In this document: piece after piece, positions 1 through 62,772 of the stretch | Position numbering within the stretch: position 1 is the first letter of the stretch | Layout: each line of letters begins with the position of its first letter | DNA from: Gemmatimonadota bacterium | GTDB taxonomy: Bacteria; Gemmatimonadota; Gemmatimonadetes; Gemmatimonadales; GWC2-71-9 | Assembly (NCBI GenBank): GCA_003222055.1 | Contig: QHUT01000054.1 | Coordinates: 15,022 to 79,021 of the forward strand | Reading direction: 5' to 3' | DNA: 64,000 nt | Position numbers and translations under genes: made by a program | Notes under the pieces: model-generated | What the model was told of the DNA's origin: nothing | The model's input: the letters and a program-made list of their open reading frames with translations, nothing else | Database searches by the model: none

Positions 1-158
1 TCGATGCGCACTCGCCACCCCTCCTCGCGGGCGGTGCCGAGCAGCAGCGCCACGGCATCGGGGGAGGCGGGCGCGACGCGCGGCACGCCGTCGGGCGTCG
101 CCGCGACCTCGACGGCTTCATCGCCCAGCAGGGCGCGGACGCGATCCAAGAGACTCAT
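1..158 (-). CDS. FAD-binding oxidoreductase, GlcE-like (N-terminal fragment; runs off the window)
   Basis: My own minus-strand translation from ATG 158..156 gives MSLLDRVRALLGDEAVEVAATPDGVPRVAPASPDAVALLLGTAREEGWRVRI. This resembles the N-terminus of a PCMH-type FAD-binding subunit. The ATG overlaps the TGA of the upstream glcD-like gene (ATGA). Confidence 0.45.
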   Translation of the reverse strand, partial: MSLLDRVRALLGDEAVEVAATPDGVPRVAPASPDAVALLLGTAREEGWRVRI

Positions 159-1657
159 CGAGCGGTTGCCTTCCGATCGATTGCGGATTGTGGATTGCGG
201 ATTGCGGATTGAGCCCCAGGGTTCGGCGCTCGCCCCATCCGCAATCCACTCCATTCCCGACACGCGTGCACCGGAACCACCTTCCCCGGGTTCACCCGCT
301 CCTCCGGGTCCCACACGTGGCGCACCGCGCGCATGGCGGCGAGCGAATCGCCGTCGAACAGGAGCGGCATGTAGCGGAGCTTGTCGAGCCCGATGCCGTG
401 CTCTCCCGTGATGGTCCCGCCGGCGGCGATGCACGTGGCCATGATTTCCGCGCTGGCCGCTTCCACCCGCTCGCGCAGGCCCGGCGTGCGGCCGTCGAAC
501 GAAATGTTGGGGTGCAGGTTGCCGTCGCCCGCGTGGAACACATTGCTGACCGTGAGCCCGTACTCGGCGGCGATCCGGGCGATCGTTTCCAGCACGTCGG
601 GGAGCGTGGAGCGGGGAACGACGGCGTCCTGGACCACCAGGTCGCGCGACAGCCGGCCCATGGCGCCGAAGGCTTTCTTGCGGCCGAGCCACAGCTTCTC
701 GCGCTGTTGCGCGTCCGCGGCCACGAGCACCGACCGCGCCCCGTGCGCGCGCAGCACGGCTTGGATCGTCTCGGCGTCCGCCGCGACCGCCGCCTCGTGC
801 GCGCCGTCGAGCTCGGCGAGCAGCACCGCCGCGGCATCGCGCGGGTAACCGGCCGCGTACACCGAGTCCTCCACTGCCTGGATGCACGACTGATCCATCA
901 TCTCGAGCGCGGCGGGCACGATCCCGCTGGCGATCACGGCGGACACGGCCTCACCGGCGGTACGCAATGAGGTGAAGTCGGCGAGCAAGGTGCGAACCGC
1001 CCGCGCGACGGGCAACAGCCGCACGGTGATGCGCGTCGCCACGCCGAAGTTGCCCTCCGAGCCGACGAACAGGCCGACCAGGTCGGGGCCCCACGGCTCG
1101 CCGCCGGGGCTGCCCAGCTCTACGACGCGTCCGTCCGCCAGCGCCACTTCCAGCGCGAGCACATGTGTCGCCGTCACCCCGTACTTGAGGCAGTGCGGGC
1201 CGCCCGCGTTTTCGGCCACGTTGCCGCCGATCGTACACGCGGTCTGACTCGAGGGATCGGGCGTATACTGCAGTCCGTGCGGTGCGGCGGCGACGGAGAG
1301 ACGGACGTTGACGACGCCGGGCTCGACCACGGCCAGCCTGTTGCGGGCGTCGATCTTGAGGATGCGGTTCAGCCGGGTCAGCACGATCAGCACCGCGTCG
1401 CCGTCGGCCAGCGCGCCCCCCGAGAGGCCGGTGCCCGCGCCACGTGGCACGAACGGCATGCCGAGCGCGCCGAGCAGCCGCACGACCGCGATCACCTCGT
1501 CCCGACTCCCCGGGAGCACGACCACGCCGGGCACGCGCCGGTGCGTGGGCAGCCCGTCCTTCGCGTACGTCACGCGCTCCGGCAGCGCCGTCCGCACGTG
1601 GCGCGGTCCGACGATCTCGGCGAGGGTGTCGACTAACGGCGCGAGGTCCCGTGCCAT
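155..1657 (-). CDS. glcD: FAD-linked oxidase, glycolate oxidase subunit GlcD / D-lactate dehydrogenase family
   Basis: Track ORF 155..1753. The likely start is ATG 1657 (MARDLAPLVDTLAEIVGPRHV). Motifs include VVLPGSRDEVIAVVRL, PRGAGTGLSGGA and C-terminal NPGKVVPVHACREWSG, which aligns with the E. coli GlcD tail. The last ~27 codons are encoded by repeat element A1. Confidence 0.85.
   Translation of the reverse strand: MARDLAPLVDTLAEIVGPRHVRTALPERVTYAKDGLPTHRRVPGVVVLPGSRDEVIAVVRLLGALGMPFVPRGAGTGLSGGALADGDAVLIVLTRLNRILKIDARNRLAVVEPGVVNVRLSVAAAPHGLQYTPDPSSQTACTIGGNVAENAGGPHCLKYGVTATHVLALEVALADGRVVELGSPGGEPWGPDLVGLFVGSEGNFGVATRITVRLLPVARAVRTLLADFTSLRTAGEAVSAVIASGIVPAALEMMDQSCIQAVEDSVYAAGYPRDAAAVLLAELDGAHEAAVAADAETIQAVLRAHGARSVLVAADAQQREKLWLGRKKAFGAMGRLSRDLVVQDAVVPRSTLPDVLETIARIAAEYGLTVSNVFHAGDGNLHPNISFDGRTPGLRERVEAASAEIMATCIAAGGTITGEHGIGLDKLRYMPLLFDGDSLAAMRAVRHVWDPEERVNPGKVVPVHACREWSGLRMGRAPNPGAQSAIRNPQSAIDRKATAR
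179..249. repeat. Heptamer-array palindromic element, family A (GCGGATT/AATCCGC), copy A1, one arm degenerate
   Basis: GATTGCGGATTGTGGATTGCGGATTGCGGATTG at 179..211, with partner CATCCGCAATCCAC at 236..249. It is translated as the GlcD-like C-terminus. Confidence 0.9.
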
Positions 1658-2962: not shown

Positions 2963-4066
2963 CTACCGCCCTGCCAGCACCTCGCGCACCACCCGCTCCG
3001 GTGCGGTCATCGTCCAGCTGCTGCCGTCGGCGTGCATGCGCCCCACCGCCTCCGGTAGCGCGAACCGCACCGTTCCGGCGCGTGCCTTCTTGTCGAGCTG
3101 CATCGTGGCGAGCAGGGCGTCCGCGGGCGCGCTCTTGGGGAGCTCGACCGGGAGACCGTAGCGCTCCAGCAGCTTGCGAATCCGATCGGCGGTTCCCGCT
3201 GCGGCGATCCCGAGCACCTCGGCGAGCCGCGCTTCGTACGCCATGCCGATCGCCACGGCCGCTCCGTGCAGCACGGCGAACTTGACGGTAGCCTCGACCG
3301 CGTGCGCCACGGTGTGACCGAAGTTGAGGATGGCGCGACGACCGGTCTCACGCTCGTCCGCGGCGACCACGCCCGCCTTGATTTCCACGGAGCGCCGCAC
3401 CAGCTGCTCGAGGGCGTCGGGTTGCCCGGTCGTCACGGCGTCGTGCTCGCGCTCCAGGAATGCGAAGTAGTCGGCGTCGGCGATCGCGGCGTGCTTGACC
3501 GCTTCGGCGACCCCCGCGGCGAGCTGCGGCGCCGGCAGGGTGCCGAGCAGGCCCAGGTCGGCCAGGACGAGCCGGGGTTGGTGAAAGGCACCCAGCAGGT
3601 TCTTGCCGGCGGGGACGTCGACACCCGTCTTGCCGCCGATCGACGAGTCGATCATCGCGAGCAGCGTCGTCGGTACCTGCACGTAGGGAACGCCCCGCAG
3701 GTAGGTGGCCGCGACGAACCCCGCCACGTCGCCCACGACGCCGCCGCCCAGCGCGATGACCCCGCAGTCGCGACCGAACTGACGCTGGAGCAGCCGATCC
3801 GAGAGGGACGCCCACGTTTCCCGCGTCTTGTTCGCTTCCCCTGCGGGAAACTCGAACAACTCCGCGTGCAACGTGGCGTCGTGGCATCGTGCCACGAGCT
3901 TCTTGCCGTACAGCGTCGCGACGTGCGAGTCGGTGATCACGGCGTAGCGGGCCGCGGGGCACGGGGCGTTCACCAAGGCGGGCAGATCCGCCAGCAGGCC
4001 GCGGCCGATCAGGATGTCGTACGAGGTGTTGCGCGGCTCTGCGATCGCGACGCGGATCGTCACCAC
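2963..4066 (-). CDS. aroB: 3-dehydroquinate synthase
   Basis: Contains GGGVVGDVAGFVAATYLRGVPYVQVPTTLLAMIDSSIGGKTGVD. The Arg-rich N-terminus of track ORF 2963..4213 overlaps the upstream gene and looks out of frame. The likely start is GTG 4066 or 4063 (GTGA overlap with the upstream stop). Confidence 0.85.
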   Translation of the reverse strand: MVTIRVAIAEPRNTSYDILIGRGLLADLPALVNAPCPAARYAVITDSHVATLYGKKLVARCHDATLHAELFEFPAGEANKTRETWASLSDRLLQRQFGRDCGVIALGGGVVGDVAGFVAATYLRGVPYVQVPTTLLAMIDSSIGGKTGVDVPAGKNLLGAFHQPRLVLADLGLLGTLPAPQLAAGVAEAVKHAAIADADYFAFLEREHDAVTTGQPDALEQLVRRSVEIKAGVVAADERETGRRAILNFGHTVAHAVEATVKFAVLHGAAVAIGMAYEARLAEVLGIAAAGTADRIRKLLERYGLPVELPKSAPADALLATMQLDKKARAGTVRFALPEAVGRMHADGSSWTMTAPERVVREVLAGR

Positions 4067-18546: not shown

Positions 18547-18735
18547 ATGACCGAGAAACCGAAACTGATGGAGCACGATGCGATGGTGTGCCGCTACTGC
18601 GGCAATGAAGAGCGTGCCTCGGAGGGATACCCCTGCGCGGACTGCGGGACCTTCATCTGTCTCATCTGCTCGTTTCGCGGGATCACGCGTTGCAAGGCGT
18701 GCGAGGACAAGGCGAAGGCGGCGAAGCAGGCCTAG
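18547..18735 (+). CDS. Small Cys-rich protein (four CxxC pairs, double zinc-ribbon-like), 62 aa
   Basis: The sequence reads CRYC...CADC...CLIC...CKAC. GAGG lies 5 nt before the ATG, 7 nt after the NtrC-like stop. Third codon positions are mostly G/C in this frame. Confidence 0.55.
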   Translation: MTEKPKLMEHDAMVCRYCGNEERASEGYPCADCGTFICLICSFRGITRCKACEDKAKAAKQA

Positions 18736-30040: not shown

Positions 30041-30810
30041 CACGGGCTCCGGGCCACGACGACGTCCACCACGGTGCCGGGGGCGGCCAGCGTACCCGCC
30101 GCCGGCCGCTGCGCGATCACGGTGCCCGGCGTCGCTTCGCCCGAGCGGCGCCGCGTCACGGTACCCAGCGCGAGCCCCTCCTGCTCCAGACGGGTGCGAG
30201 CATCCGCCTGCGACAGGCCGAGCAGGCCCGGCACCGCGATGGTCGGGGCGCCCCGGCTCACCACCACCGTCACCGGCGCCCCCGGGGCCAGGAGCGTCGT
30301 GGCGGCCGGCCGGGTGAGCATCGTCACGCCGGGGGCCGCCGCGGCCTGCACCGACTCCACCTGCGCCACGGTGAGCCCGGCCGCGACGATCAGCTGCTGC
30401 GCCAGCGGTCCATCCAGGCCGGCCACGTGCGGTACCGGAATCTTGGGGGGACCGTCGCTCGACACCAGGGTCACCCGCAGCCCCGCCGGCGCGCTCACGC
30501 CGGCAGGCGGGTCCTGCCAAATGATGCTGCCCTGTGGGGCGCTGGGGTGCGACTCTGAGCCGCCGTCCTGCACCTGCAGCCCCGCCTTGCGGAGCGCGGC
30601 CGAGGCCTCCTGCAGCGACAGACCCAGCACGCGTGGTACGACATCGTGTCCGTGCAGGATGGGGGCGGGAAAGAGAACGAGGTACGCCGTCAGATACCCT
30701 ATCACGATGGCTCCGACGAGGGCGAGTCCCCAACGTCGCGCCCCGGACAGGTCGCCGAAGGCGGGCAGCTTCCATTCCTGCAGCGGCGGGACGTGACGGC
30801 GGAGCTGCAT
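30040..30810 (-). CDS. Membrane-anchored PASTA-domain protein (three PASTA-like repeats, no kinase or PBP domain)
   Basis: One TM segment (WGLALVGAIVIGYLTAYLVLF), then three repeats ~65-70 aa long of the type VPxVxGLsxxxAxxxLxxaGL...V. Confidence 0.7.
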   Translation of the reverse strand: MQLRRHVPPLQEWKLPAFGDLSGARRWGLALVGAIVIGYLTAYLVLFPAPILHGHDVVPRVLGLSLQEASAALRKAGLQVQDGGSESHPSAPQGSIIWQDPPAGVSAPAGLRVTLVSSDGPPKIPVPHVAGLDGPLAQQLIVAAGLTVAQVESVQAAAAPGVTMLTRPAATTLLAPGAPVTVVVSRGAPTIAVPGLLGLSQADARTRLEQEGLALGTVTRRRSGEATPGTVIAQRPAAGTLAAPGTVVDVVVARSP

Positions 30811-32060
30811 CAGCGCGTCCGCGCGAAGCGCGCCGCGTATGCACCGTCGATTCCGTCGCGCTGTGGCAGGGACTGCAGGTCGCCGTCCGGAGTGAGCAGG
30901 GCAGCCGGCACCGCGGCCGGCACGGGCGCGCGCCCGAACTCAGGGTGGCAGGCGAGGAACTCGGTCACGATGTCGTCGTTCTCCTCCGGCTCGAGCGAGC
31001 AGGTACTGTAGACGAGCAGTCCTCCCGCACCGACGAGCGTTGCGGCGGCCGCGAGCAGCGCCCGCTGCCGCCGGGCGGCGTGTACGATCGTGCGCGGCGT
31101 GATCCGCCAGCGGGCGTCCGGATGCCGGGCCATGGTGCCGGTAGCGGAGCACGGGGCGTCCACCAACACGGCGGATGCGGTTCCCGGCGCGAGCGGTGCC
31201 GACAGAAGATCGGCGACCGTCACCCGGATCGCCACTCCCGCCCGTCGCGTCGTCTCGGCCAGCCGGCGCATGCGCTCCGGCCGGGCGTCCCCCGCCACGA
31301 CTCGAGCGCCGCCCCGCTCCAGCATCACGGCCTTGCCGCCCGGCGCGGCACAGGCGTCGTACACGAGCGCTCCCGGGGGGATCGCGGCGTAGCGGCAGAC
31401 GAGGGCGTGGGCGGGGTCCTGGACGATAAAGCCGCCTTCCGAATACCCCGGCAACTGCACGGGAAACGGGAAACGGGAAACGTGGTCGAGGCGTGACACC
31501 CGCAGGCCGGCTCCATGGGGCGCTTCTTCTACACCAAACCCGACCTTCCGGAGCTCGAGCGCGAGCACATCGGCGGACCAACGGGCAGGCTGAAGCGTGA
31601 GATTCGGCTTCGTGTCATTCCAGGCGACCAGCCGGGTTGTGTCGGTCGCCCCAAAGAGGCGCCGCCAGCGCTCGACGAGCCACGACGGGTGCGTGTTCTC
31701 GCCCGTTTCCCGTTTCCGGTTTCCCGTTTCCCGAGCGAGCCTTCGCAGCGCCTGGTTCACATACCTCGCTGCCGCGTCGCCCGCCGCTTCCCGCGCCAGC
31801 TCCACGCTGGTGGCGACCGCCGCGTAGGCCGGCACGCGGGCCAATGCGGCCAGCTGGTAGGCGCCAAGACGGAGGACATCGTGCAGGCGCGGGTCGGCGT
31901 GGCGCAGCCGCAGCCGGCGGTCGAGATCCGCTCGCCCCCGCAGCACGCCGGCGGCGAGCTCATAGGCGAGCCGGCGGTCCCGCCCGGCGAGCGTGGGAAG
32001 CACCCGGTCCCGCGCCGCCTGGAACGTGCCGCCGGAGCGCACCGCCTGGAGGATGTGCAA
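30810..32060 (-). CDS. rsmB: 16S rRNA (cytosine967-C5)-methyltransferase
   Basis: HPSWLVERW, FIVQDPAHALV, DACAAPGGK, DAPCSATGT and YSTCSLEPEEN. It contains two in-frame heptamer arrays (see repeats). Confidence 0.9.
   Translation of the reverse strand: MHILQAVRSGGTFQAARDRVLPTLAGRDRRLAYELAAGVLRGRADLDRRLRLRHADPRLHDVLRLGAYQLAALARVPAYAAVATSVELAREAAGDAAARYVNQALRRLARETGNRKRETGENTHPSWLVERWRRLFGATDTTRLVAWNDTKPNLTLQPARWSADVLALELRKVGFGVEEAPHGAGLRVSRLDHVSRFPFPVQLPGYSEGGFIVQDPAHALVCRYAAIPPGALVYDACAAPGGKAVMLERGGARVVAGDARPERMRRLAETTRRAGVAIRVTVADLLSAPLAPGTASAVLVDAPCSATGTMARHPDARWRITPRTIVHAARRQRALLAAAATLVGAGGLLVYSTCSLEPEENDDIVTEFLACHPEFGRAPVPAAVPAALLTPDGDLQSLPQRDGIDGAYAARFARTR
31459..31482. repeat. (GGGAAAC)x3 heptamer array inside rsmB
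   Basis: ACGGGAAACGGGAAACGGGAAACG. It is translated on the minus strand as SRFPFP. Confidence 0.9.
31702..31733. repeat. (CCCGTTT)x4 heptamer array inside rsmB, inverted partner of 31459..31482
   Basis: CCCGTTTCCCGTTTCCGGTTTCCCGTTTCCCG. It is translated on the minus strand as RETGNRKRETG. Confidence 0.9.
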
Positions 32061-35202: not shown

Positions 35203-35534
35203 TGGGGCTTGGCTTCGATCGACCGGTTGAGGATGTTGGCGATGTTGGTGCGCATCACGACGACGCGCGACTCGCCGCTCTTCACGGTCACTTCGTCGTC
35301 CTTCAGATGCACCACTTCGCCGATGATGCCGCCCGAGGTCACGACTTTGTCGCCGCGCTGCAGCGAGGCGAGCAGCTGGCGGTGGCGCTCCTGCTGCTTG
35401 CGCTGGGGTCGGATGAGCATGACGTAGAAGATCGCGATCAGCGCGGCGATCTGGACCAGGAAAATGGTGAGCCCGCCCGAAGCGTTCTGGCCCGAGGGGG
35501 CGAACAGCAGCGCCAGCATGGGGTGCGCGGTCAT
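35199..35534 (-). CDS. yajC: Preprotein translocase subunit YajC
   Basis: IFLVQIAALIAIFYVMLIRPQRKQQERHRQLLASLQRGDKVVTSGGIIGEV. ATGA overlap with the tgt stop. Confidence 0.88.
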   Translation of the reverse strand: MTAHPMLALLFAPSGQNASGGLTIFLVQIAALIAIFYVMLIRPQRKQQERHRQLLASLQRGDKVVTSGGIIGEVVHLKDDEVTVKSGESRVVVMRTNIANILNRSIEAKPQ

Positions 35535-36727
35535 GCGGATCCCGATCGCAGGTAGCGGCGGCGCCAGGCATCGGCCCACGGGCCGAAGGCGTTCCGCCGG
35601 ATCGCGGCCCGCATGTCCTGCGCGAGCCGGATCAGGTAGCGGACGTTGTGCAGCGACAACAGTCTCAGGCCCAGCAGCTCTTCCGCTACGAACAGGTGCC
35701 GGAGGTACCCCCGCGAGAACGTGGTGCACGCCTCGCAGTCGCACGAGTCGTCGAGCGGCCGCGGGTCCTCGCGGTGCTCGGCGTTGCGAATGTTCACGGG
35801 GCCGTCGGGCGTGAAGGCCGAGCCGTTTCGCCCGTTGCGCGTCGGCGCCACGCAGTCGAACAGATCCAGCCCGCGCTCCACCGCCGCCACCAGGTCCTCG
35901 GGAAACCCCACGCCCATAAGATAACGCGGCAGGGCGGGGGGGAGCCGCGGCTCGAGCGCGTCGAGCATCGCGTACATCGCCGCCTTGGGCTCGCCGACCG
36001 AGAGGCCGCCGATCGCGAGACCGGTCCAGTCGCGCATGTCGCAGATCCGGCGCAGTCCTTCCTCCCGCAGCGCGAGATGGACGCCGCCCTGGAGAATGGG
36101 CCACAAGGTCTGGTTGCACGACGCTACGACGCCACGTTGCAAGGAGTGCCCGGCGTCAGTCGTGGAACGTGGCGTCGTAGCGTCGTGTGACGCTTTCAGT
36201 TCCTCATGCCGCTTCCGGCACCGCTCCAACCATCTCAGCGTTCGCTCGAGGGCGTCCCTGGCCGCGCTCTCGTCCGCGCCCCCGGGGACCACGTGGTCGA
36301 ACGCCATCGCGACGTCGGCGCCCAGGGTCCACTGGATCTCCGTGGCGCGCTCGGGCGTGAGCCGGCGACGGCCGCCGTCCACGTGGCTCTGGAACTCGAC
36401 GCCGTCGTCGTCCACGCGCCGGAAGCCCTCGAGCGAGAATACCTGGAAGCCGCCCGAGTCCGTGAGCAGCGGTCGATCCCAGCCCATGAAGCGGTGCAGC
36501 GCGCCGAGCGTCGCCACCACCTCCTCGCCCGGGCGCACGTGCAGGTGATAGGTGTTCGCGAGCACGAGCGTCGCGCCCGCGGCGCGGAGGTCGTTGGGCG
36601 AAAGCGCCCGCACGGTGCCTTGAGTCCCGACCGGCATGAAGACCGGCGTTTCGACGCTACCGTGCGGGAGGGTGAGGGTGCCGGCGCGGGCGGGGCCGGA
36701 GGTCGCGTCGACCTTGAACTCGAACAC
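35531..36727 (-). CDS. tgt: Queuine tRNA-ribosyltransferase (tRNA-guanine transglycosylase)
   Basis: The start GTG 36727 gives (M)FEFKVDATSGPARAGTL, which aligns with E. coli MKFELDTTDGRARRGRL. Also LTDSGGFQVFSL, GLAIGGLSVGE and CDCEAC. The ~25-aa loop HDATTPRSTTDAGHSLQRGVVAS is encoded by palindrome B1. The track ORF N-terminus (to 36811) runs through repeat A2 and is rejected. Confidence 0.92.
   Translation of the reverse strand: MFEFKVDATSGPARAGTLTLPHGSVETPVFMPVGTQGTVRALSPNDLRAAGATLVLANTYHLHVRPGEEVVATLGALHRFMGWDRPLLTDSGGFQVFSLEGFRRVDDDGVEFQSHVDGGRRRLTPERATEIQWTLGADVAMAFDHVVPGGADESAARDALERTLRWLERCRKRHEELKASHDATTPRSTTDAGHSLQRGVVASCNQTLWPILQGGVHLALREEGLRRICDMRDWTGLAIGGLSVGEPKAAMYAMLDALEPRLPPALPRYLMGVGFPEDLVAAVERGLDLFDCVAPTRNGRNGSAFTPDGPVNIRNAEHREDPRPLDDSCDCEACTTFSRGYLRHLFVAEELLGLRLLSLHNVRYLIRLAQDMRAAIRRNAFGPWADAWRRRYLRSGSA
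36117..36187. repeat. Octamer-array palindromic element, family B (CACGACGC/GCGTCGTG), copy B1, inside tgt
   Basis: Perfect 22-bp inverted repeat: CACGACGCTACGACGCCACGTT (36117..36138) and AACGTGGCGTCGTAGCGTCGTG (36166..36187), with a 27-nt loop. Confidence 0.95.
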
Positions 36728-36734
36728 GGGCGTT

Positions 36735-36812
36735 ATTGCGGATTGCGGATTTCGGATTGCGGATTCGAAAGTCGGGCGTCCAATCCGCAATCCACAATCC
36801 GCAATCCGCAAT
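36735..36812. repeat. Heptamer-array palindromic element, family A, copy A2
   Basis: Left arm ATTGCGGATTGCGGATTTCGGATTGCGGATT (36735..36765). Loop CGAAAGTCGGGCGTCC. Right arm AATCCGCAATCCACAATCCGCAATCCGCAAT (36782..36812). 29 of 31 positions are complementary. It fills the queA-tgt gap. Confidence 0.95.
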
Positions 36813-37864
36813 CAGAGTACCGCCATTGCATCCCCATACGAGTAAAACCGGTATCCCTCCCTTACCGCTTCCCCGTACGCCCGCATGACGTTGTCATAGC
36901 CCCCGAACGCGCACACCAACATTAGCAGGGTCGAGCGCGGCAGGTGGAAGTTCGTGAGCAGCCGGTCGACCGCGCGGAACGAGTACGGGGGGTGAATGAA
37001 GAGCCGGGTCTCGCCGGCGCCCGGAGCGATGCGGCCGCGCTCGCCGGCAAGCGTTTCGAGCGTGCGCACGACCGTGGTCCCGACCGCCCAGACGCGACCT
37101 CCCGCTTCCCGTCGCTCGTTGATGATCCCGGCCGCGCTGTCGCTCACCCGGTACGGCTCGTCGTGCATCGCATGGCGCGCGAGGTCGTCGGTCTCGACCG
37201 GCTTGAAGGTGCCGGGGCCGACGTGCAGGTCCACTTCCGCGAGCGCCACGCCCTTGTCGCGCAGCCGGTCCAACAGGTCGCGCGTGAAATGCAATCCGGC
37301 CGTGGGAGCGGCGACGCTGCCGTCGTGTGCCGCGTACACCGTCTGGTAGCGCTCGCGATCCTCGGGGCGCGGCGCGCGGCGGATGTAGGGCGGCAGTGGC
37401 ACCTCGCCGTACTTGGCGAGCGTGGCCGGGGCGTCGAGCGCGCCGACGAACCGCACCCGGCGGAGGCCGCCTCCCAACGCCTCGACGATCTCCGCGGTGC
37501 TGTCGGGGCCGAACGTCACGCGGCGTCCCGACTTGAGCTTGCCTCCGGGATGCCCCATGGCGAGCCAGGTCCCATCGGGTAGCTCCCGGACGAGCAAGAG
37601 TTCGGCCTTGCCGCCGGACCCGCCCATCCCGCTTCCCGCAAGCCGCATCCCGTGCAGTCTCGCCGGAATCACGCGTGACACGTTGACGACGAGCACGTCC
37701 TCCGGCGCCACCAGATCGACGACGTCGACGAACCGCCCGTGGCGGATCGCCCCGCTGGCGCGATCGAGCACCAGGAGGCGACTCCCGCCCCGATCGGGGA
37801 GCGGGTCTTGGGCGATCTGCTCGGCTGGCAGACTGTAGTCGAAGTCTGAAGTTCGGTAGAGCAC
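36812..37864 (-). CDS. queA: S-adenosylmethionine:tRNA ribosyltransferase-isomerase
   Basis: The start GTG 37864 gives (M)LYRTSDFDYSLPAEQIAQDPL, which aligns with E. coli MRVTDFSFELPESLIAHYP. Also TRVIPARL-like VSRVIPARL, AAPTAGLHFT and FRFYSYGDAM. The track ORF N-terminus runs through repeat A3. Confidence 0.92.
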   Translation of the reverse strand: MLYRTSDFDYSLPAEQIAQDPLPDRGGSRLLVLDRASGAIRHGRFVDVVDLVAPEDVLVVNVSRVIPARLHGMRLAGSGMGGSGGKAELLLVRELPDGTWLAMGHPGGKLKSGRRVTFGPDSTAEIVEALGGGLRRVRFVGALDAPATLAKYGEVPLPPYIRRAPRPEDRERYQTVYAAHDGSVAAPTAGLHFTRDLLDRLRDKGVALAEVDLHVGPGTFKPVETDDLARHAMHDEPYRVSDSAAGIINERREAGGRVWAVGTTVVRTLETLAGERGRIAPGAGETRLFIHPPYSFRAVDRLLTNFHLPRSTLLMLVCAFGGYDNVMRAYGEAVREGYRFYSYGDAMAVL

Positions 37865-37870
37865 GCCGAG

Positions 37871-37952
37871 AATTGCGGATGGCGGATTTCGGATTGCGGA
37901 TTCGAAGGTCGTGGGTCCAATCCGCAATCCGCACTCCACAATCCGCAATCCG
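37871..37952. repeat. Heptamer-array palindromic element, family A, copy A3
   Basis: AATTGCGGATGGCGGATTTCGGATTGCGGATT, loop CGAAGGTCGTGGGTCC, then AATCCGCAATCCGCACTCCACAATCCGCAATCCG. It fills the ruvB-queA gap. Confidence 0.95.
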
Positions 37953-37954
37953 TG

Positions 37955-41930: not shown

Positions 41931-41943
41931 GACGGCCCCTCCT

Positions 41944-41989
41944 GTGCGTCTGTGCGTCTGTGCGTCTAGCCTACTATAGATGTAGACGC
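41944..41989. repeat. (GTGCGTCT)x3 octamer array ending in a 7-bp hairpin
   Basis: GTGCGTCTGTGCGTCTGTGCGTCT at 41944..41967. GCGTCTA (41962..41968) pairs with TAGACGC (41983..41989). The GCGTCT core is the same as in element 1675..1790. Confidence 0.85.
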
Positions 41990-55228: not shown

Positions 55229-56068
55229 GTGATCCCCAGCCCCGCGCTACTCATGTACCACCGCGTCGTGCGCAGTCGTTGGACTCTGACCGGTCTCGCC
55301 GTCGTCGTCGCACTCGCGCTCGCTGCGCTGGCGGCGCCGCTCATCGCGCCGGGCGATCCCTATCACGGACACCTCGCCGCCGCGTTGCAGGCGCCGTCGC
55401 GCGCCTTCCCGCTCGGCACCGACGCGCAGGGACGCGACGTCCTGAGCCGGCTGCTGTTCGGCGCCCGGTTGTCGCTCGCCGTCGGGCTCGCGAGCCAGGT
55501 GATCGCCCTCGCGGTCGGGCTCACGCTGGGTCTGGCGGCGGGCTTCTACGGGCGCTCCGTGGACGCGGTGGTGATGCGCGCCGCCGATGTGACCCTCGCC
55601 TTCCCGTCCCTCCTCCTGCTCATCGCCGTCGCCGCCGCCGTGAAGCCCACGCTGCCGGTCGTGTGCGTGGTGATCGGCATCGTGGGCTGGGCGGGCATGG
55701 CCCGCCTGGTGCGCGCCCAGGTCCTCGTGGTGCGTCGTCTCGACTACGTCCACGCGGCGCGCGCGTTCGGCGCCTCCGACGCACGCCTCGCCGCGCGCCA
55801 CGTGCTCCCCAACGTGCTGGGCCCGGTGATCGTCGCCGCCACCCTCGGTGTCGGTGGTGCGATCATGGCCGAAGCCGCGCTCTCGTTCGTGGGGCTGGGC
55901 GCGCCACCGCCCACGCCCTCGTGGGGCGCGATGGTGGCCGAGGGCCGCGACCTGCTGCGGGTGGCGCCGTGGGTGTCGCTCTTTCCCGGGCTCGCGATCG
56001 GCCTGACTGTGCTAGCCGTCAATCTCATCGGCGACGGCTTACGTGACGCCCTGGATGTGCGGGCATGA
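55229..56068 (+). CDS. ABC peptide/nickel transporter permease (DppC/OppC-like)
   Basis: LAAPLIAPGDPY...GTDAQGRDVLSRLLFGARLSL...YVHAARAFGAS. Confidence 0.85.
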   Translation: MIPSPALLMYHRVVRSRWTLTGLAVVVALALAALAAPLIAPGDPYHGHLAAALQAPSRAFPLGTDAQGRDVLSRLLFGARLSLAVGLASQVIALAVGLTLGLAAGFYGRSVDAVVMRAADVTLAFPSLLLLIAVAAAVKPTLPVVCVVIGIVGWAGMARLVRAQVLVVRRLDYVHAARAFGASDARLAARHVLPNVLGPVIVAATLGVGGAIMAEAALSFVGLGAPPPTPSWGAMVAEGRDLLRVAPWVSLFPGLAIGLTVLAVNLIGDGLRDALDVRA

Positions 56069-57252
56069 CCGACATCGCCTACCACCCGACGCGCCTGCGC
56101 GCCTTGCGCGACCAGTTCCGCGCGCTGCGCGCCGCCGAGTTTCCCTGGACCGCGGACACCGTCTATTTGAACAACGCGTCCATCGGGCCCATCCCGGAGC
56201 GCACCCGCCGCGTACTCGACGAGTTCACCGCCAAGCGCACCGCCCCACACCTCCTCCCGGACCGCGAGCTGCAGGCGGGGCTGCAGGCGGCGCGCGCGGC
56301 GGTCGCCCGCCTGCTCAACGCGGAGCCGGCCGAGATCGCGCTCGCCACCAACACCAGTCACGGGCTGAACCTCGCGGCGCGCGCCCTGCCGCTCAAGCGC
56401 CGCGACGTGGTGCTCGTGTCCGATCGCGAGTTCCCTGCCAACGTGTACCCGTGGCTGCTGCTCAAGAAGCAGGGGATCGAAGTGGAGCTCGCTCCGTGCG
56501 CCGGCGAAGGCTGGCCCGACGAGGACTATCTGGTCGAGCGTCTGCATGACCCGCGCGTGCGCGTGCTCGCCGTCTCGTTCGTCCAGTTCGCCAACGGGTA
56601 CCGCGCAGACCTGGGGCGCCTCGGGGCCGCCTGCCGTGCCAACGGGACGTTTCTCGTGGTGGATGGGATTCAGGGCGTAGGAAACTCGACCCTCGACGTG
56701 CGCGAGACCCCCGTGGACATCCTCGCGTGCGGCGGCCAGAAGTGGCTGCTCTCCCCCTGGGGCTCGGGCTTCGTGTACGTGCGGCGCGAGCTCATCTCGG
56801 CGCTCGAGCCCGCCGTCACCGGCTGGATGGCGTTCGAAGGGACCGACGACTTCTCCCGCCTCACCGAGTACAACCCCACCTTCCGCGCCGACGCCCGCCG
56901 CTTCGAAATGGTCACCCTGCCGTTCCAGGACTTCCACGGCATGACGACATCAGTCGGCATGCTCGCCGAGCTGGGCGTCGACGACATCGCGCAGTACGCC
57001 CGTACACTGCACGAGCCGGTGCTCCACTGGGCCGAGGAGAACGGCATCCGCGTCGTCTCACCCTCGGACGATGCGCACCGCTCGGCCATCGTCTGCCTCG
57101 CACCCCAGCATCCCGCCGAGGCGTATCACGCGCTCAAGCGCGCGCACGTCGTCTGCTCGTTGCGCGAGGGCGCCATCCGCCTGGCTCCGCATTGCTACAA
57201 CACCGTCGAAGAGATGGAGCGGGTGGTCGACGTACTCGACCAGTTAGAGTAA
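56065..57252 (+). CDS. Class V aminotransferase-fold PLP enzyme (cysteine desulfurase/selenocysteine lyase-like)
   Basis: VYLNNASIGPIPERT...TNTSHGLN...DGIQGVG...GGQKWLLSPWGSGF. 4-nt overlap with the dppC-like stop. Confidence 0.8.
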   Translation: MTDIAYHPTRLRALRDQFRALRAAEFPWTADTVYLNNASIGPIPERTRRVLDEFTAKRTAPHLLPDRELQAGLQAARAAVARLLNAEPAEIALATNTSHGLNLAARALPLKRRDVVLVSDREFPANVYPWLLLKKQGIEVELAPCAGEGWPDEDYLVERLHDPRVRVLAVSFVQFANGYRADLGRLGAACRANGTFLVVDGIQGVGNSTLDVRETPVDILACGGQKWLLSPWGSGFVYVRRELISALEPAVTGWMAFEGTDDFSRLTEYNPTFRADARRFEMVTLPFQDFHGMTTSVGMLAELGVDDIAQYARTLHEPVLHWAEENGIRVVSPSDDAHRSAIVCLAPQHPAEAYHALKRAHVVCSLREGAIRLAPHCYNTVEEMERVVDVLDQLE

Positions 57253-57259
57253 AGCGTTA

Positions 57260-57330
57260 CACGACGCCACGACGCCACGACGCCACGTTGCGAGAGCCTC
57301 TTTCGTGGAACGTGGCGTCCTGCCGTCATG
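57260..57330. repeat. Octamer-array palindromic element, family B, copy B2 (between convergent genes)
   Basis: (CACGACGC)x3 + CACGTT at 57260..57289, with partner AACGTGGCGTCCTGCCGTCATG at 57309..57330 (19 of 22 complementary). The loop starts GCGAG and ends TCGTGG, like B1. Confidence 0.9.
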
Positions 57331-57982
57331 CAACGCTCTCTCGGTGCTTATCCCCCCACCACGCCCACGCCACAAACAGCCACCCGAAGATGATACCGCC
57401 GATGGCGAGCGCGACGCGCGTCGTCGGCGGTGGCGGACTGAACAGCGAGCCGACGTACGACAGCAGCAGCACCGCGACGAGCGCCCAGAATCCGTAGCTC
57501 CCCGCGCGGTCGCGGGCTCGCGTGGCGGTGGCGTAGAGCCAGACGCCCGCGACGAACATCACTCCCTCGACGACCACCGTGCCGGCGACGGAGTTCCAGA
57601 GACCGAGCCCCAGCGGCGTGCCGCCCGGGTACAGCGGCATGTCGGGGCGATGGGTGACGTAGTCGAGCACCCAGTGGCTCACGACGAGGAGCGCGATCAC
57701 GACCCCTCCGCGGTCGTCCAGCGTGCGCGCGCGGTACACCAACCCGAACAGCGCGCCCCATCCGATCAGGGTGACGAGGCTGTGCGAGATCGGGATCGAG
57801 TCGAGCCACAGCGTCAGGAACGGATTCGGCCCCGGCACGACGTGGGCCTGCTCCCAGCCGAGCAGCAGGAACACCGGCCACAGCAGATCGGCGAGCGACG
57901 TGGCGGCGAACAGCGTGCCCAGCGAGGCTCGCGGCGCGGCACGCTTCGCGGCCAGGGCGACGGCGTAGTGGCCGATGAACAT
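57326..57982 (-). CDS. Integral membrane protein (putative membrane-bound metal-dependent hydrolase-like)
   Basis: MFIGHYAVALAAK... with about six hydrophobic segments and conserved His residues. The family is uncertain. The last codons lie in repeat B2. Confidence 0.5.
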   Translation of the reverse strand: MFIGHYAVALAAKRAAPRASLGTLFAATSLADLLWPVFLLLGWEQAHVVPGPNPFLTLWLDSIPISHSLVTLIGWGALFGLVYRARTLDDRGGVVIALLVVSHWVLDYVTHRPDMPLYPGGTPLGLGLWNSVAGTVVVEGVMFVAGVWLYATATRARDRAGSYGFWALVAVLLLSYVGSLFSPPPPTTRVALAIGGIIFGWLFVAWAWWGDKHRESVA

Positions 57983-61477: not shown

Positions 61478-61564
61478 GAGGGGCTAGGGGTCGGGGGCTA
61501 GGGGCTGGGGACTGCGCTGCCATCCCGAATCCCTGACCCCTGACCCCTGATCCCTGACCCCTGA
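61478..61564. repeat. G-tract / C-tract heptamer palindrome (GGGGCTA-type arm against CCCTGAC-type arm)
   Basis: GGGGCTAGGGGTCGGGGGCTAGGGGCTGGGG at 61480..61510 and CCCTGACCCCTGACCCCTGATCCCTGACCCCTGA at 61531..61564. The right arm ends at the ATG of the amidohydrolase gene. Confidence 0.9.
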
Positions 61565-62772
61565 TGTTGCGCATCCGCGCAGGGTCCGTGCACCCCGTCA
61601 CGGCGCCGCCCATCACGGACGGCGCCGTTCTCGTTGCGGACGATGGCCGGATCGCGGCGGTCGCGGCGCATGCGCAATTGCCCGACCCTCCAGGATCCCG
61701 CCGGGTCGAGTTTCCCGACGCCGTCCTCGTCCCGGGCCTCGTCAACACGCACACCCACCTCGAGCTCACCCATCTCGCCGGTCGCAATCCGGAGCGCGAG
61801 TTCTCCCGCTGGATCCGCACCATCCGGGCGCTGAAGGACGCGACCACGCCCGAAGAGTTCGATCACTCGGCCGAGCAGGGCGTGCGGGACTGCTGGACGG
61901 CGGGCGTCACCTGCGTCGCGGACACGGGAAGTACCGGAGCGCCCCTCAGGGCGCTCGCCCGCCTCGGCGCGCGCGGGATCTATTATCAGGAGGTATTCGG
62001 CCCCGATCCGGCGGACCGGGCGGTGAGCCTGGCCGACCTGCAGGCCGCCGTGGTCCGGCTCGGTCCCGTCGCCTCCGCCCGCGCACGGCTCGGCGTGTCG
62101 CCGCACGCGCCGTACACCGTGAGCGAGCCGCTCTATCGCGCGGTCGCCGATTTTGCACGGCGCGAAACGCTCCCCGTCGCGATGCACCTGGCCGAGTCGC
62201 GCGATGAGACGGCGCTGGTACGCGACGGGGCGGGCTCGTTCGCCCAGGCGCTGCGCGCGCGCGGTATCCCCGTGCAAGCGCACCACTGCTCGCCGGTGCA
62301 GTATCTCCTGCAACTTGGCGTCTTAGAACATGCAACGGGGTGGCTCTTCATCCACTGCGTTCAAGTGGACGCACGGGACATCGCGATTCTGCGGGACTCG
62401 GGTGGGGCGGTGGCCGCCTGCCCCCGTTCCAACCGCGCCCACGGGCACGGCACGGCGCCCCTGGCTGCATTCCGGGCCGCCGGCATCCCGGTCGGGCTCG
62501 GCACCGACTCGGTGGTCAGCGCGGGCGATGTCAACCTGTGGGCCGAGGCGGCGGCCGCCGGACTGCACGGGGAGGACGCGATCCGCATGCTCACGATCGA
62601 GGGAGCGCGGGCGCTCGGGCTCGACGGCGAGATCGGCTCGCTCGAGGTCGGGAAGCAGGCCGACCTCGCGGTTTTTCCCTCTGCCGCCCTCGCCCGCCCT
62701 TTGCCGCCATCTGCCGCCCTTCTCACCCTCGTCGCCGGACGGGTCGTTCGCGGCTACATTCCCGCCCCATGA
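61564..62772 (+). CDS. Amidohydrolase-family protein (chlorohydrolase/deaminase-like)
   Basis: VLVPGLVNTHTHLELT (HxH metal site), MHLAES and GLGTDS. The C-terminal part contains tandem decamers. Confidence 0.8.
   Translation: MLRIRAGSVHPVTAPPITDGAVLVADDGRIAAVAAHAQLPDPPGSRRVEFPDAVLVPGLVNTHTHLELTHLAGRNPEREFSRWIRTIRALKDATTPEEFDHSAEQGVRDCWTAGVTCVADTGSTGAPLRALARLGARGIYYQEVFGPDPADRAVSLADLQAAVVRLGPVASARARLGVSPHAPYTVSEPLYRAVADFARRETLPVAMHLAESRDETALVRDGAGSFAQALRARGIPVQAHHCSPVQYLLQLGVLEHATGWLFIHCVQVDARDIAILRDSGGAVAACPRSNRAHGHGTAPLAAFRAAGIPVGLGTDSVVSAGDVNLWAEAAAAGLHGEDAIRMLTIEGARALGLDGEIGSLEVGKQADLAVFPSAALARPLPPSAALLTLVAGRVVRGYIPAP
62671..62730 (+). repeat. Tandem decamers (CTGCCGCCCT-like, about 5-6 units) in the 3' part of the amidohydrolase CDS
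   Basis: GTTTTTCCCT CTGCCGCCCT CGCCCGCCCT TTGCCGCCAT CTGCCGCCCT TCTCACCCTC, read in register from 62671. No inverted partner was seen. Confidence 0.75.

Follow-up and report, generated by a model that had tools for sequence, protein, structure and literature searches.

In the 64,000-nucleotide stretch of Gemmatimonadota DNA analysed here (hereafter, the window), two genes meet tail to tail. On the plus strand, an ORF at 56065-57252 encodes a class-V aminotransferase (Pfam PF00266, E = 6.9e-41), and on the minus strand, downstream of tyrS, an ORF at 57326-57982 encodes a membrane hydrolase of the YdjM family. The latter is a real coding frame, with a GC3 of 0.91 as compared to 0.50 and 0.68 in the competing frames; its own Pfam YdjM score is slightly below the cut-off, and it has approximately 8000 homologues, with PF04307 (YdjM/DUF457) found on most of them among the matches listed. 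In YdjM homologues, the conserved body ends in ...W.D.HRE and is followed by hypervariable tails. Between the two genes, at positions 57253-57337, lies an 85 bp palindrome, which we call copy B; its two arms enclose a loop, and its ends are AGCGTT...AACGCT. Its left arm (57253-57289, plus strand) is made up of AGCGTTA, three CACGACGC octamers (57260-57283) and CACGTT, its 19-nt loop (57290-57308, assigned to no strand) reads GCGAGAGCCTCTTTCGTGG and contains a small inner stem, and its right arm (57309-57337, plus strand), AACGTGGCGTCCTGCCGTCATGCAACGCT, equals two units and is mismatched to the left arm. In other words, the window between 57240 and 57340 reads GAG TAA, AGCGTTA, three times CACGACGC, CACGTT, GCGAGAGCCTCTTTCGTGG, AACGTGGCGTCCTGCCGTCATGCAACGCT and CTCTCGG. 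The loop is alike in orthologues of this copy and differs from the loops found at other sites.

The initial annotation, made from the sequence alone, had described this structure as three octamers plus CACGTT on the left and a right arm complementary at 19 of 22 positions, and both descriptions hold. Namely, a pattern search and a repeat finder agree on exact CACGACGC octamers starting at 57260, 57268 and 57276 with CACGTT next, Tandem Repeats Finder gives a period of 8, 3.5 copies and 100% matches, and the 22-nt arms 57268-57289 and 57309-57330 are indeed 19/22 complementary (86%). It is also correct that the first octamer starts 8 nt past the aminotransferase TAA, the ORF ending at 57250-57252. 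The element as such is wider than was reported, however. In a second register, 57253-57279 pairs with 57311-57337 (27-nt arms, 85%), and the outer bases AGCGTT (57253-57258) pair with AACGCT (57332-57337) and are present in the family consensus described below. Since AGCGTT at 57253 pairs in the 27-nt register, it belongs to the palindrome, and the whole unstranded element therefore spans 57253-57337 and abuts the TAA directly, an extent for which inverted repeat, folds, family consensus and empty sites all speak.

Copy B is no chance feature. As RNA, its fold energies are -45.8 kcal/mol (z = -4.0) for the plus and -64.1 kcal/mol (z = -8.8) for the minus strand, none of 200 shuffles folds as well, and the window contains the core GACGCCACGTT 8 times, compared with 2.4 expected occurrences. 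We considered the higher stability of the minus strand as a sign of selection at the RNA level and rejected it: the difference between -64 and -46 kcal/mol arises because two A.C mismatches turn into G.U pairs, and every transition at an A or C of the minus strand of copy B yields a wobble pair. The same two changes created the GCA TGA in this copy.

What does the element contribute to its neighbors? The outer 12 nt of its right arm are minus-strand coding sequence, namely the last three ydjM codons, AGC GTT GCA (S V A), and the TGA stop (57326-57337, minus strand), and all twelve bases are element-derived. It had been proposed that the right arm holds the last codons and the stop of the membrane-protein gene, and this is the case, AGC GTT GCA TGA being read in the frame with a GC3 of 0.91. 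That said, the overlap with the stop understates the effect: lineages with an empty site, described next, indicate that the element rewrote the C-terminus of the membrane protein and did not merely overlap its stop. The TAA of the aminotransferase (57250-57252, plus strand), on the other hand, adjoins copy B directly and is host sequence, as it lies at the same codon, in an identical position, in empty and filled sites.

The element is found at the same aminotransferase/ydjM junction, between the same flanks, in 12 contigs including the window, and the junction is empty in four lineages (L014, L018, L119 and L120), in which the aminotransferase and ydjM genes overlap by 13-18 nt. The empty sites read GAGTAG-A(C/T)CGC-CTCGCGGTG or ACGTGA-CTCGCGGTG, whereas the filled site reads GAGTAA, followed by the 85 bp from AGCGTT to AACGCT, followed by CTCTCGGTG, an all-or-none difference of approximately 80 bp. 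Empty sites with overlapping genes in four lineages identify copy B as an insertion, and an insertion at overlapping genes means that the element rewrote the ydjM C-terminus; indeed, the ydjM tails at empty sites (AIYSS, AVYST and LRQVV) are the antisense reading of the end of the aminotransferase gene. No target-site duplication is seen at the only comparable site, the empty/filled junction (GAGTAA|AGCGTT...AACGCT|CTCTCGG as opposed to GAGTAG-ACCGC-CTCGCGG). Among 120 clusters of YdjM homologues, 37 have tails of the empty type, 44 of the family type and 9 of a 15-mer-array type, the rest being diverse. In 29 of the 44 family-type tails, translation stops inside the arm, and the other 15 read along the arm as ..RRYDATL.

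How often did this happen? In a neighbor-joining tree built from 642 nt of ydjM, the empty lineages L119 and L120 fall inside the filled clade, and the filled L022/L053 stand beside the empty L018. Empty lineages among filled ones in such a quick tree imply a history with losses, repeated gains or recombination. L022 and the main clade have the derived GCATGA in common, which favors a single old insertion followed by losses or by allelic recombination at the junction, and it is this history that, on a thin tree, we favor as well.

The second copy in the window, copy A, belongs to the same family and lies in tgt (approximately 36112-36195, unstranded), where it is recognized by its inverted arms and by alignment with the TGT of Zymomonas. 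The tgt ORF (35531-36727, minus strand) reads ...SHDATTPRSTTDAGHSLQRGVVASCNQ... through copy A and aligns with the Zymomonas enzyme from end to end, except for approximately 22 extra residues encoded by the palindrome. Contigs L026 and L069 carry orthologous tgt inserts at the same place. Judging from these alignments, copy A has truly been inserted into tgt in frame; it has ACGACGCCACGTTGC...TCGTGGAACGTGGCGTC in common with copy B.

Scanning one genome per species for ACGACGCCACGTT-N15-45-AACGTGGCGTC yielded 13 stretches, ten of them in metagenome-assembled genomes (MAGs) labelled Gemmatimonadetes or Gemmatimonadales (MAGs with core matches being AG4, AG12, AG20, AG22, AG46 and SMAG_U11569), and a scan of metagenomes with the 11+11-nt core yielded 93 stretches. 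Clustering 108 copies by their flanks gave 36 sites, from which 12 clusters were set aside to leave 24. In particular, eleven clusters were dropped from the census as chance palindromes that have the core and no arms (L002/L007, L023, L025, L030, L056/L107, L057, L077, L084, L094/L110, L096 and L099), and L006 was excluded as a possible relative with 9-nt units. The latter, at 1600-1740 of a contig from a MAG binned as Solibacteraceae, has the same core and architecture with four 9-nt AACGACGCC units per arm, and reflects either a family that extends across phyla or a mis-binned contig. The true members thus occupy 24 independent sites, almost all on contigs of soil Gemmatimonadetes. Their 48 arms, approximately 35 nt in length, share the consensus (R-A-R-G)CGTTnCA CGACGCCA CGACGCCA CGTTsCA CGAg and are more than 85% identical across the 24 unrelated sites, including the non-repetitive ends CGTTnCA and CGTTsCACGA, and the 16-36 nt between the two 11-mers are not conserved from site to site. 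These findings strongly support the proposal of the initial annotation that the tgt insert belongs to a dispersed family with further copies, which turned up in genome contigs and metagenomes alike.

With two copies in the 64-kb window, up to three perfect-core copies per MAG and about five further diverged copies found by fuzzy matching in 750 kb of fetched loci, the family would appear to number tens of copies per genome and not hundreds. Viral contigs contain no family copy, their sole match being an unrelated simple palindrome on the same contig as L030, and an Rfam scan of the whole window gave no match at the gathering score. No transposase or RAYT-like gene stands beside any copy examined, including those in the window and in L080; the neighbors are TonB, glycosyltransferase, response regulator and tRNA genes. 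No pair of inverted arrays up to 3 kb apart encloses a transposase in the 750 kb of fetched loci. In L080 (300-345 and 1325-1360) and L028, copies lie directly by tRNA genes and flank a TonB-like gene, with three family copies within 3 kb and no transposase between them. Within the window itself, a lone right-arm-like GCAACGTGGCGTCGTGGCATCGTG of the CACGACGC family lies at 3868-3891, inside sequence that codes on the minus strand, and approximately 130 nt away, at 3724-3742, is a weak left-arm-like stretch; the former could be a decayed intragenic copy or a chance match.

Given how closely copy B adjoins a stop codon, one may ask whether the stop belongs to the element. We rejected this possibility, as the stop sits at the same codon in empty sites and the logo of the element flanks shows A at -3 in 19 of 34 cases and purines at -4 and -2, with T not enriched at -5. 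In the family census, the flanking stops cluster 16-23 nt from the core, that is, at the outer end of the arm. The intergenic spacers in this genome are tiny, so that any tolerated insertion necessarily abuts a stop and the ribosome-binding site of the next gene. For this reason, we do not claim stop-codon adjacency as a targeting signal, and attribute it to the very short spacers.

Following its insertion, the element has apparently continued to change in place. Namely, three left-arm octamers are found in the window copy only, and the other 11 of the 12 orthologues have two on each arm, the simplest reading being that the third octamer is a recent gain by slippage that was not copied to the right arm. 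The right arm of the window copy also contains uncompensated transversions (CCTGCCG for CGTGGCG), which, together with arms unbalanced by one unit, suggests that constraint has relaxed in this genome. Lineages further away have different alleles at this junction: two arms of CTACGACG units (L015 and L114), a GACGGCACG/CGTGCCGTC variant (L117), six heptamers of the TACACGT/TGCAGGT type (L113), arrays of a 15-mer containing GGCGTTGCCGGGTGA (L112 and L116), the 15-mer unit of L116 repeating the host stop together with the element end (GAGTGAGGCGTT), and a single unit of the 15-mer type (L115). Finally, in L017 (approximately 2188-2241 of Ga0209375_1000057), the octamer element is replaced by three unrelated hairpins built on CCCCGGGG motifs, so that palindromes have landed or grown at this junction repeatedly. 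At another locus, L082 (6470-6586), the left arm is expanded with a 15-nt period (five times ACGACGCCACGTTAC) and the right arm has the usual two octamers, which shows that the arms of the family undergo slippage at more than one period.

Throughout this turnover, pairing between the arms has persisted. In an alignment of nine orthologous variants of copy B, 93.5% of cells are paired, and both-sided changes are seen in 6 of 28 pairs, including a C:G to G:C swap, a level reached by only 2 of 500 shuffles. Covariation scores 0.184, compared with 0.121 in shuffles (0/500 reach it) and 0.01-0.09 with slid partners. Compensatory changes and covariation together argue that palindromic symmetry is actively kept, and the element has been retained at the junction across lineages that are approximately 15-20% diverged in ydjM. 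The cause may be either selection on the hairpin or template switching within the quasipalindrome, template-switch correction of quasipalindromes being an established mutational route (PMC7202029).

Copies A and B have company in the window, which contains about eight more palindromes or arrays made from other 7-8-nt units, and the 750 kb of fetched loci contain approximately 25 more inverted-array pairs of heptamers or octamers. Two near-identical GATTGCG/CGCAATC palindromes (36735-36815 and 37872-37952, within the stretches 36728-36815 and 37865-37954), alike in arms and loops and with 4-5 units per arm, fill the ruvB/queA and queA/tgt spacers on the minus strand from the upstream stop to approximately 7 nt before the next start, and an array of the same type at 179-250 lies inside the 3' end of a gene for an FAD-linked oxidase (155-1657, minus strand), the last ~30 residues of which (..QSAIRNPQSAIDRKATAR*) are encoded by the repeat and not covered by the Pfam domains. 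Between this gene and one of the sigma-70 family, 2 nt from the upstream stop, a palindrome at 1676-1789 has arms of three CAGACGCC and three GGCGTCTG units around a strong inner hairpin (GGGGCCAGGAA...TTCCTGGCCCC). The palindrome at 61479-61564, with AGGGGCT-like and CCCTGAC heptamers and approximately 5 units per arm, starts 3 nt past the PBP1A stop, between the genes for PBP1A and an amidohydrolase; in its 3' portion, the latter ORF also contains a 10-nt tandem array at 62677-62720 (CCCTCTGCCG x 4.4), for which we saw no inverted partner. In rsmB (30810-32060, minus strand), inverted ACGGGAA and CCCGTTT arrays at 31459-31484 and 31702-31733, 217 nt apart, occupy the two linkers that border the ferredoxin-like domain, and their translations read ..RETGNRKRETGE.. 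and ..SRFPFPV... At 41931-41973, an array of three CTGTGCGT units (41942-41967), a small hairpin and a perfect AGGAGG are flanked by a 125-aa ORF that has no Pfam match and by a 296-aa ORF that has the DnaB C-terminal helicase domain only, and may thus mark a dnaB-like gene split by a repeat insertion. As a separate observation, the gap between convergent genes at 18547-18735 contains an unrecognized 62-aa ORF, whose four CxxC pairs (MTEKPKLMEHDAMVCRYCGNEE...CKACEDKAKAAKQA) give its product the look of a zinc-ribbon mini-protein.

One can take these observations a step further and propose, tentatively and as a generalization that we regard as somewhat doubtful at present, that soil Gemmatimonadetes harbor an undescribed, multi-family class of 'tandem-unit palindromes' with units of 7-8 nt (sometimes 15 nt), which spread without a footprint and turn over in place. 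If this is true, such palindromes would spread to the 3' ends of genes and into genes without leaving a footprint, slippage and template switching would make them grow, shrink and change units where they stand, and protein C-termini and the spacing of convergent genes would be repeatedly rewritten in the process. The ydjM/aminotransferase junction would then be a natural allelic series, comprising empty, octamer, heptamer, 15-mer and single-unit alleles as well as unrelated hairpins.

Concerning function, the initial annotation had suggested that copy B could serve as a bidirectional terminator. There is, indeed, a strong hairpin on both strands at the 3' ends of both convergent genes, whose stops lie at 57250-57252 (plus) and 57326-57328 (minus). 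A consensus terminator scan makes no call at copy B, the plus-strand tail (CUCUCUCGGUGCUUAUCC / CTCTCTCGGTGC) has no U-tract after the stem, the minus-strand tail (CUUUACUCU / CTTTACTCT) is weakly U-rich, and, in 40 kb of the window, sites combining a hairpin with a U-tract are not enriched (4 compared with 7.3 expected, and 5 compared with 6.1). A canonical U-tract bidirectional terminator is not to be expected here. Position points to the 3' ends of genes: over all loci, the elements with both flanks assigned comprise 18 between codirectional, 7 between convergent and 3 between divergent genes, and within the window, tandem-unit palindromes lie only downstream of genes and never in the promoter gap of divergent genes. 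The sense-strand fold is the stabler one in 13 of 18 codirectional elements, a weak bias. Among analogues that have been studied by experiment, the REP sequences of E. coli come closest: REP325 is a partly Rho-dependent terminator and mRNA stabilizer, and the presence of REPs between two convergent genes goes along with stronger expression of the pair (bioRxiv 10.64898/2026.03.23.713779). By this analogy, we propose a REP-like role as a 3' hairpin as our best guess for the function of copy B.

Taken together, we consider it probable, with a rough probability of 0.62, that copy B is a member of a dispersed, non-coding, REP/MITE-like family of palindromes that was inserted at this junction, evolved in place and acts as a REP-like 3' hairpin. 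The plan of its arms is CGTTnCA, two (in the window, three) CGACGCCA units, CGTTsCA and CGA around a variable loop of 16-36 nt. The element entered the tail-to-tail junction of the aminotransferase and ydjM-like genes, as documented by the empty and filled alleles, and, lying just 3' of the aminotransferase stop, it replaced the ydjM tail (AIYSS to SVA) and supplied the new TGA. Afterwards, the left arm of the window copy gained one octamer, most simply by replication slippage, and other lineages show turnover of units to heptamers or 15-mers, pairing being kept by compensatory changes, which would stem from hairpin selection or from template switching within the palindrome. Transcription from either gene would then produce a long GC-rich 3' hairpin, which may act as a barrier to 3' exonucleases and, in the manner of REPs, as a partial, possibly factor-dependent stop that separates the convergent transcripts. 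The variable loops speak against the mobile-family part of this reading, being atypical for copy-and-paste MITEs or REPINs. Further points against the reading are that target-site duplication was looked for and not seen, that no copy examined has a transposase or RAYT-like neighbor, that copies apparently number only tens per genome, that the plus-strand tail has no U-tract and the terminator scan makes no call, that the window copy shows signs of relaxed constraint, that the bias in sense-strand stability is weak, and that the quick tree places empty sites among filled ones.

The main rival to a role as a 3' hairpin, which we consider rather unlikely and yet take seriously, is purely selfish or neutral persistence. 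If so, the repeat would simply be tolerated at this junction, which is one of the few places where an insertion does not kill a gene, it would have no role in expression, and its pairing would be maintained by template switching at the DNA level only, along the established correction route (PMC7202029). The eroding right arm and unbalanced unit numbers of the window copy fit this picture, as do the common empty-site lineages with overlapping genes (37 of 120 tails) and the intragenic tgt copies and rsmB-linker arrays, which cannot be terminators. It sits less well with the strong preference for the 3' sides of genes over divergent promoter regions (25 compared with 3), the compensatory changes including a C:G to G:C swap, the stabler sense-strand fold in 13/18 elements and the persistence at the site across lineages approximately 15-20% diverged in ydjM.

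Could the palindrome have arisen on the spot? A 3' stem-loop that grew locally by slippage and symmetrization, with its likeness to the tgt copy being convergent, would agree with the turnover among octamers, heptamers and 15-mers and the changes in unit number at the same site, with the many unit types of the same architecture in these genomes, and with the L116 15-mer that repeats the host stop and the element end. That said, arms of approximately 35 nt that are over 85% identical at 24 unrelated sites down to their end pieces, empty sites that differ all-or-none by ~80 bp, and copies E6 and E7 of another family that have even their loops in common are hardly the products of convergence, and a local origin of copy B is already largely refuted and highly improbable. 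Least probable of all is that the inverted octamer arrays are bound cooperatively by a protein, for instance one of the nucleoid-associated, topoisomerase, partition-like or ribbon-helix-helix type: REP/BIME sequences were formerly proposed to be protein-binding arrays, iteron and heptad operator arrays consist of iterated short units that the direct and inverted 7-8-bp units resemble, and several unit families coexist, yet there is no known candidate protein, each genome has many different unit sequences, the elements lie downstream of genes and not at promoters, and covariation preserves pairing and not unit sequence.

Work on the origin, spread and function of REP-like palindromes has been done almost entirely on Proteobacteria. 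What the present junction provides, in a poorly studied phylum, is a family with tandem units, clear empty and filled alleles, and many diverged alleles with compensatory change. Coding sequence is affected as well: one protein has acquired a different C-terminus and stop, tgt an insert in frame, and two convergent genes that overlapped have been pulled apart. Such allelic variety and coding effects at one site make the insertion, upkeep and evolution of these elements testable by comparative and population metagenomics. On the practical side, tandem-unit repeats will cause gene callers to misjudge C-termini and could interrupt assemblies.

How do these elements compare with known systems? In the literature, we found nothing on palindromic repeats of Gemmatimonadetes or on inverted arrays of heptamers or octamers, nor any description of arms built from tandem 7-8-nt units, of multiple unit families within a genome or of units that turn over at a fixed site. 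With intrinsic (Rho-independent) bidirectional terminators, copy B shares a GC-rich hairpin between convergent genes, but its stem measures approximately 30 bp, its loop 19 nt, and the U-tract is absent on the plus strand and weak on the minus strand. Bacterial MITEs such as Correia/NEMIS, ERIC and Nezha are likewise dispersed inverted repeats of approximately 80 bp and can donate stop codons or coding sequence to neighboring genes. Copy B resembles them in its small size and terminal inverted repeats, all 85 bp being inverted repeat, and differs in that there is no target-site duplication at the one comparable site, the internal sequence is not conserved, and a search of the 750 kb of fetched loci for arrays up to 3 kb apart turned up no parent IS that shares its ends. 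The palindromic elements of Rickettsia (RPE) also insert in frame into housekeeping genes, as copy A does, and RPE-4 and RPE-6 have been classed with the CGTC REPs (PMC3733652). Unlike the present family, to which they have no sequence relation, they lack tandem units, and copy B is extragenic save for 12 nt.

The heptamer repeats of cyanobacteria and Beggiatoa (STRR, TAACTGA) have in common with our elements intergenic arrays of 7-nt units and several unit families per genome. They are, however, direct arrays located mostly upstream of starts (PMC4679880; bioRxiv 10.1101/2022.06.06.494920), with one inverted case among 170 sets (PMC4679880), whereas here octamers form paired inverted arrays 3' of genes. 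Finally, the REP, REPIN and BIME sequences of Proteobacteria, including the GTAG- and CGTC-tagged ones, have a single stem of 8-13 bp in place of arms built from arrays of 7-8-nt units. In our family there is no unpaired GTAG or CGTC tag, CGTC occurring in the arm consensus inside paired units only and GTAG in variant units only, such as those of copy A and L015; what is more, no RAYT gene stands beside the copies in the window and in L080, the copies apparently number tens per genome, and the loops vary by site. Gemmatimonadetes are not listed in the REP survey (PMC3733652). In the remaining respects the resemblance is close: both are short, dispersed, imperfect palindromes, both are found mainly 3' of genes, where neighboring ORFs are codirectional or convergent, both insert without target duplication and occur in intragenic copies as well, and the roles proposed for REPs, namely mRNA 3' stabilization and partial termination (PMC3733652; PMC3116915; bioRxiv 10.64898/2026.03.23.713779), are those that we propose, as a best guess, for copy B at the shared end of its two convergent genes.
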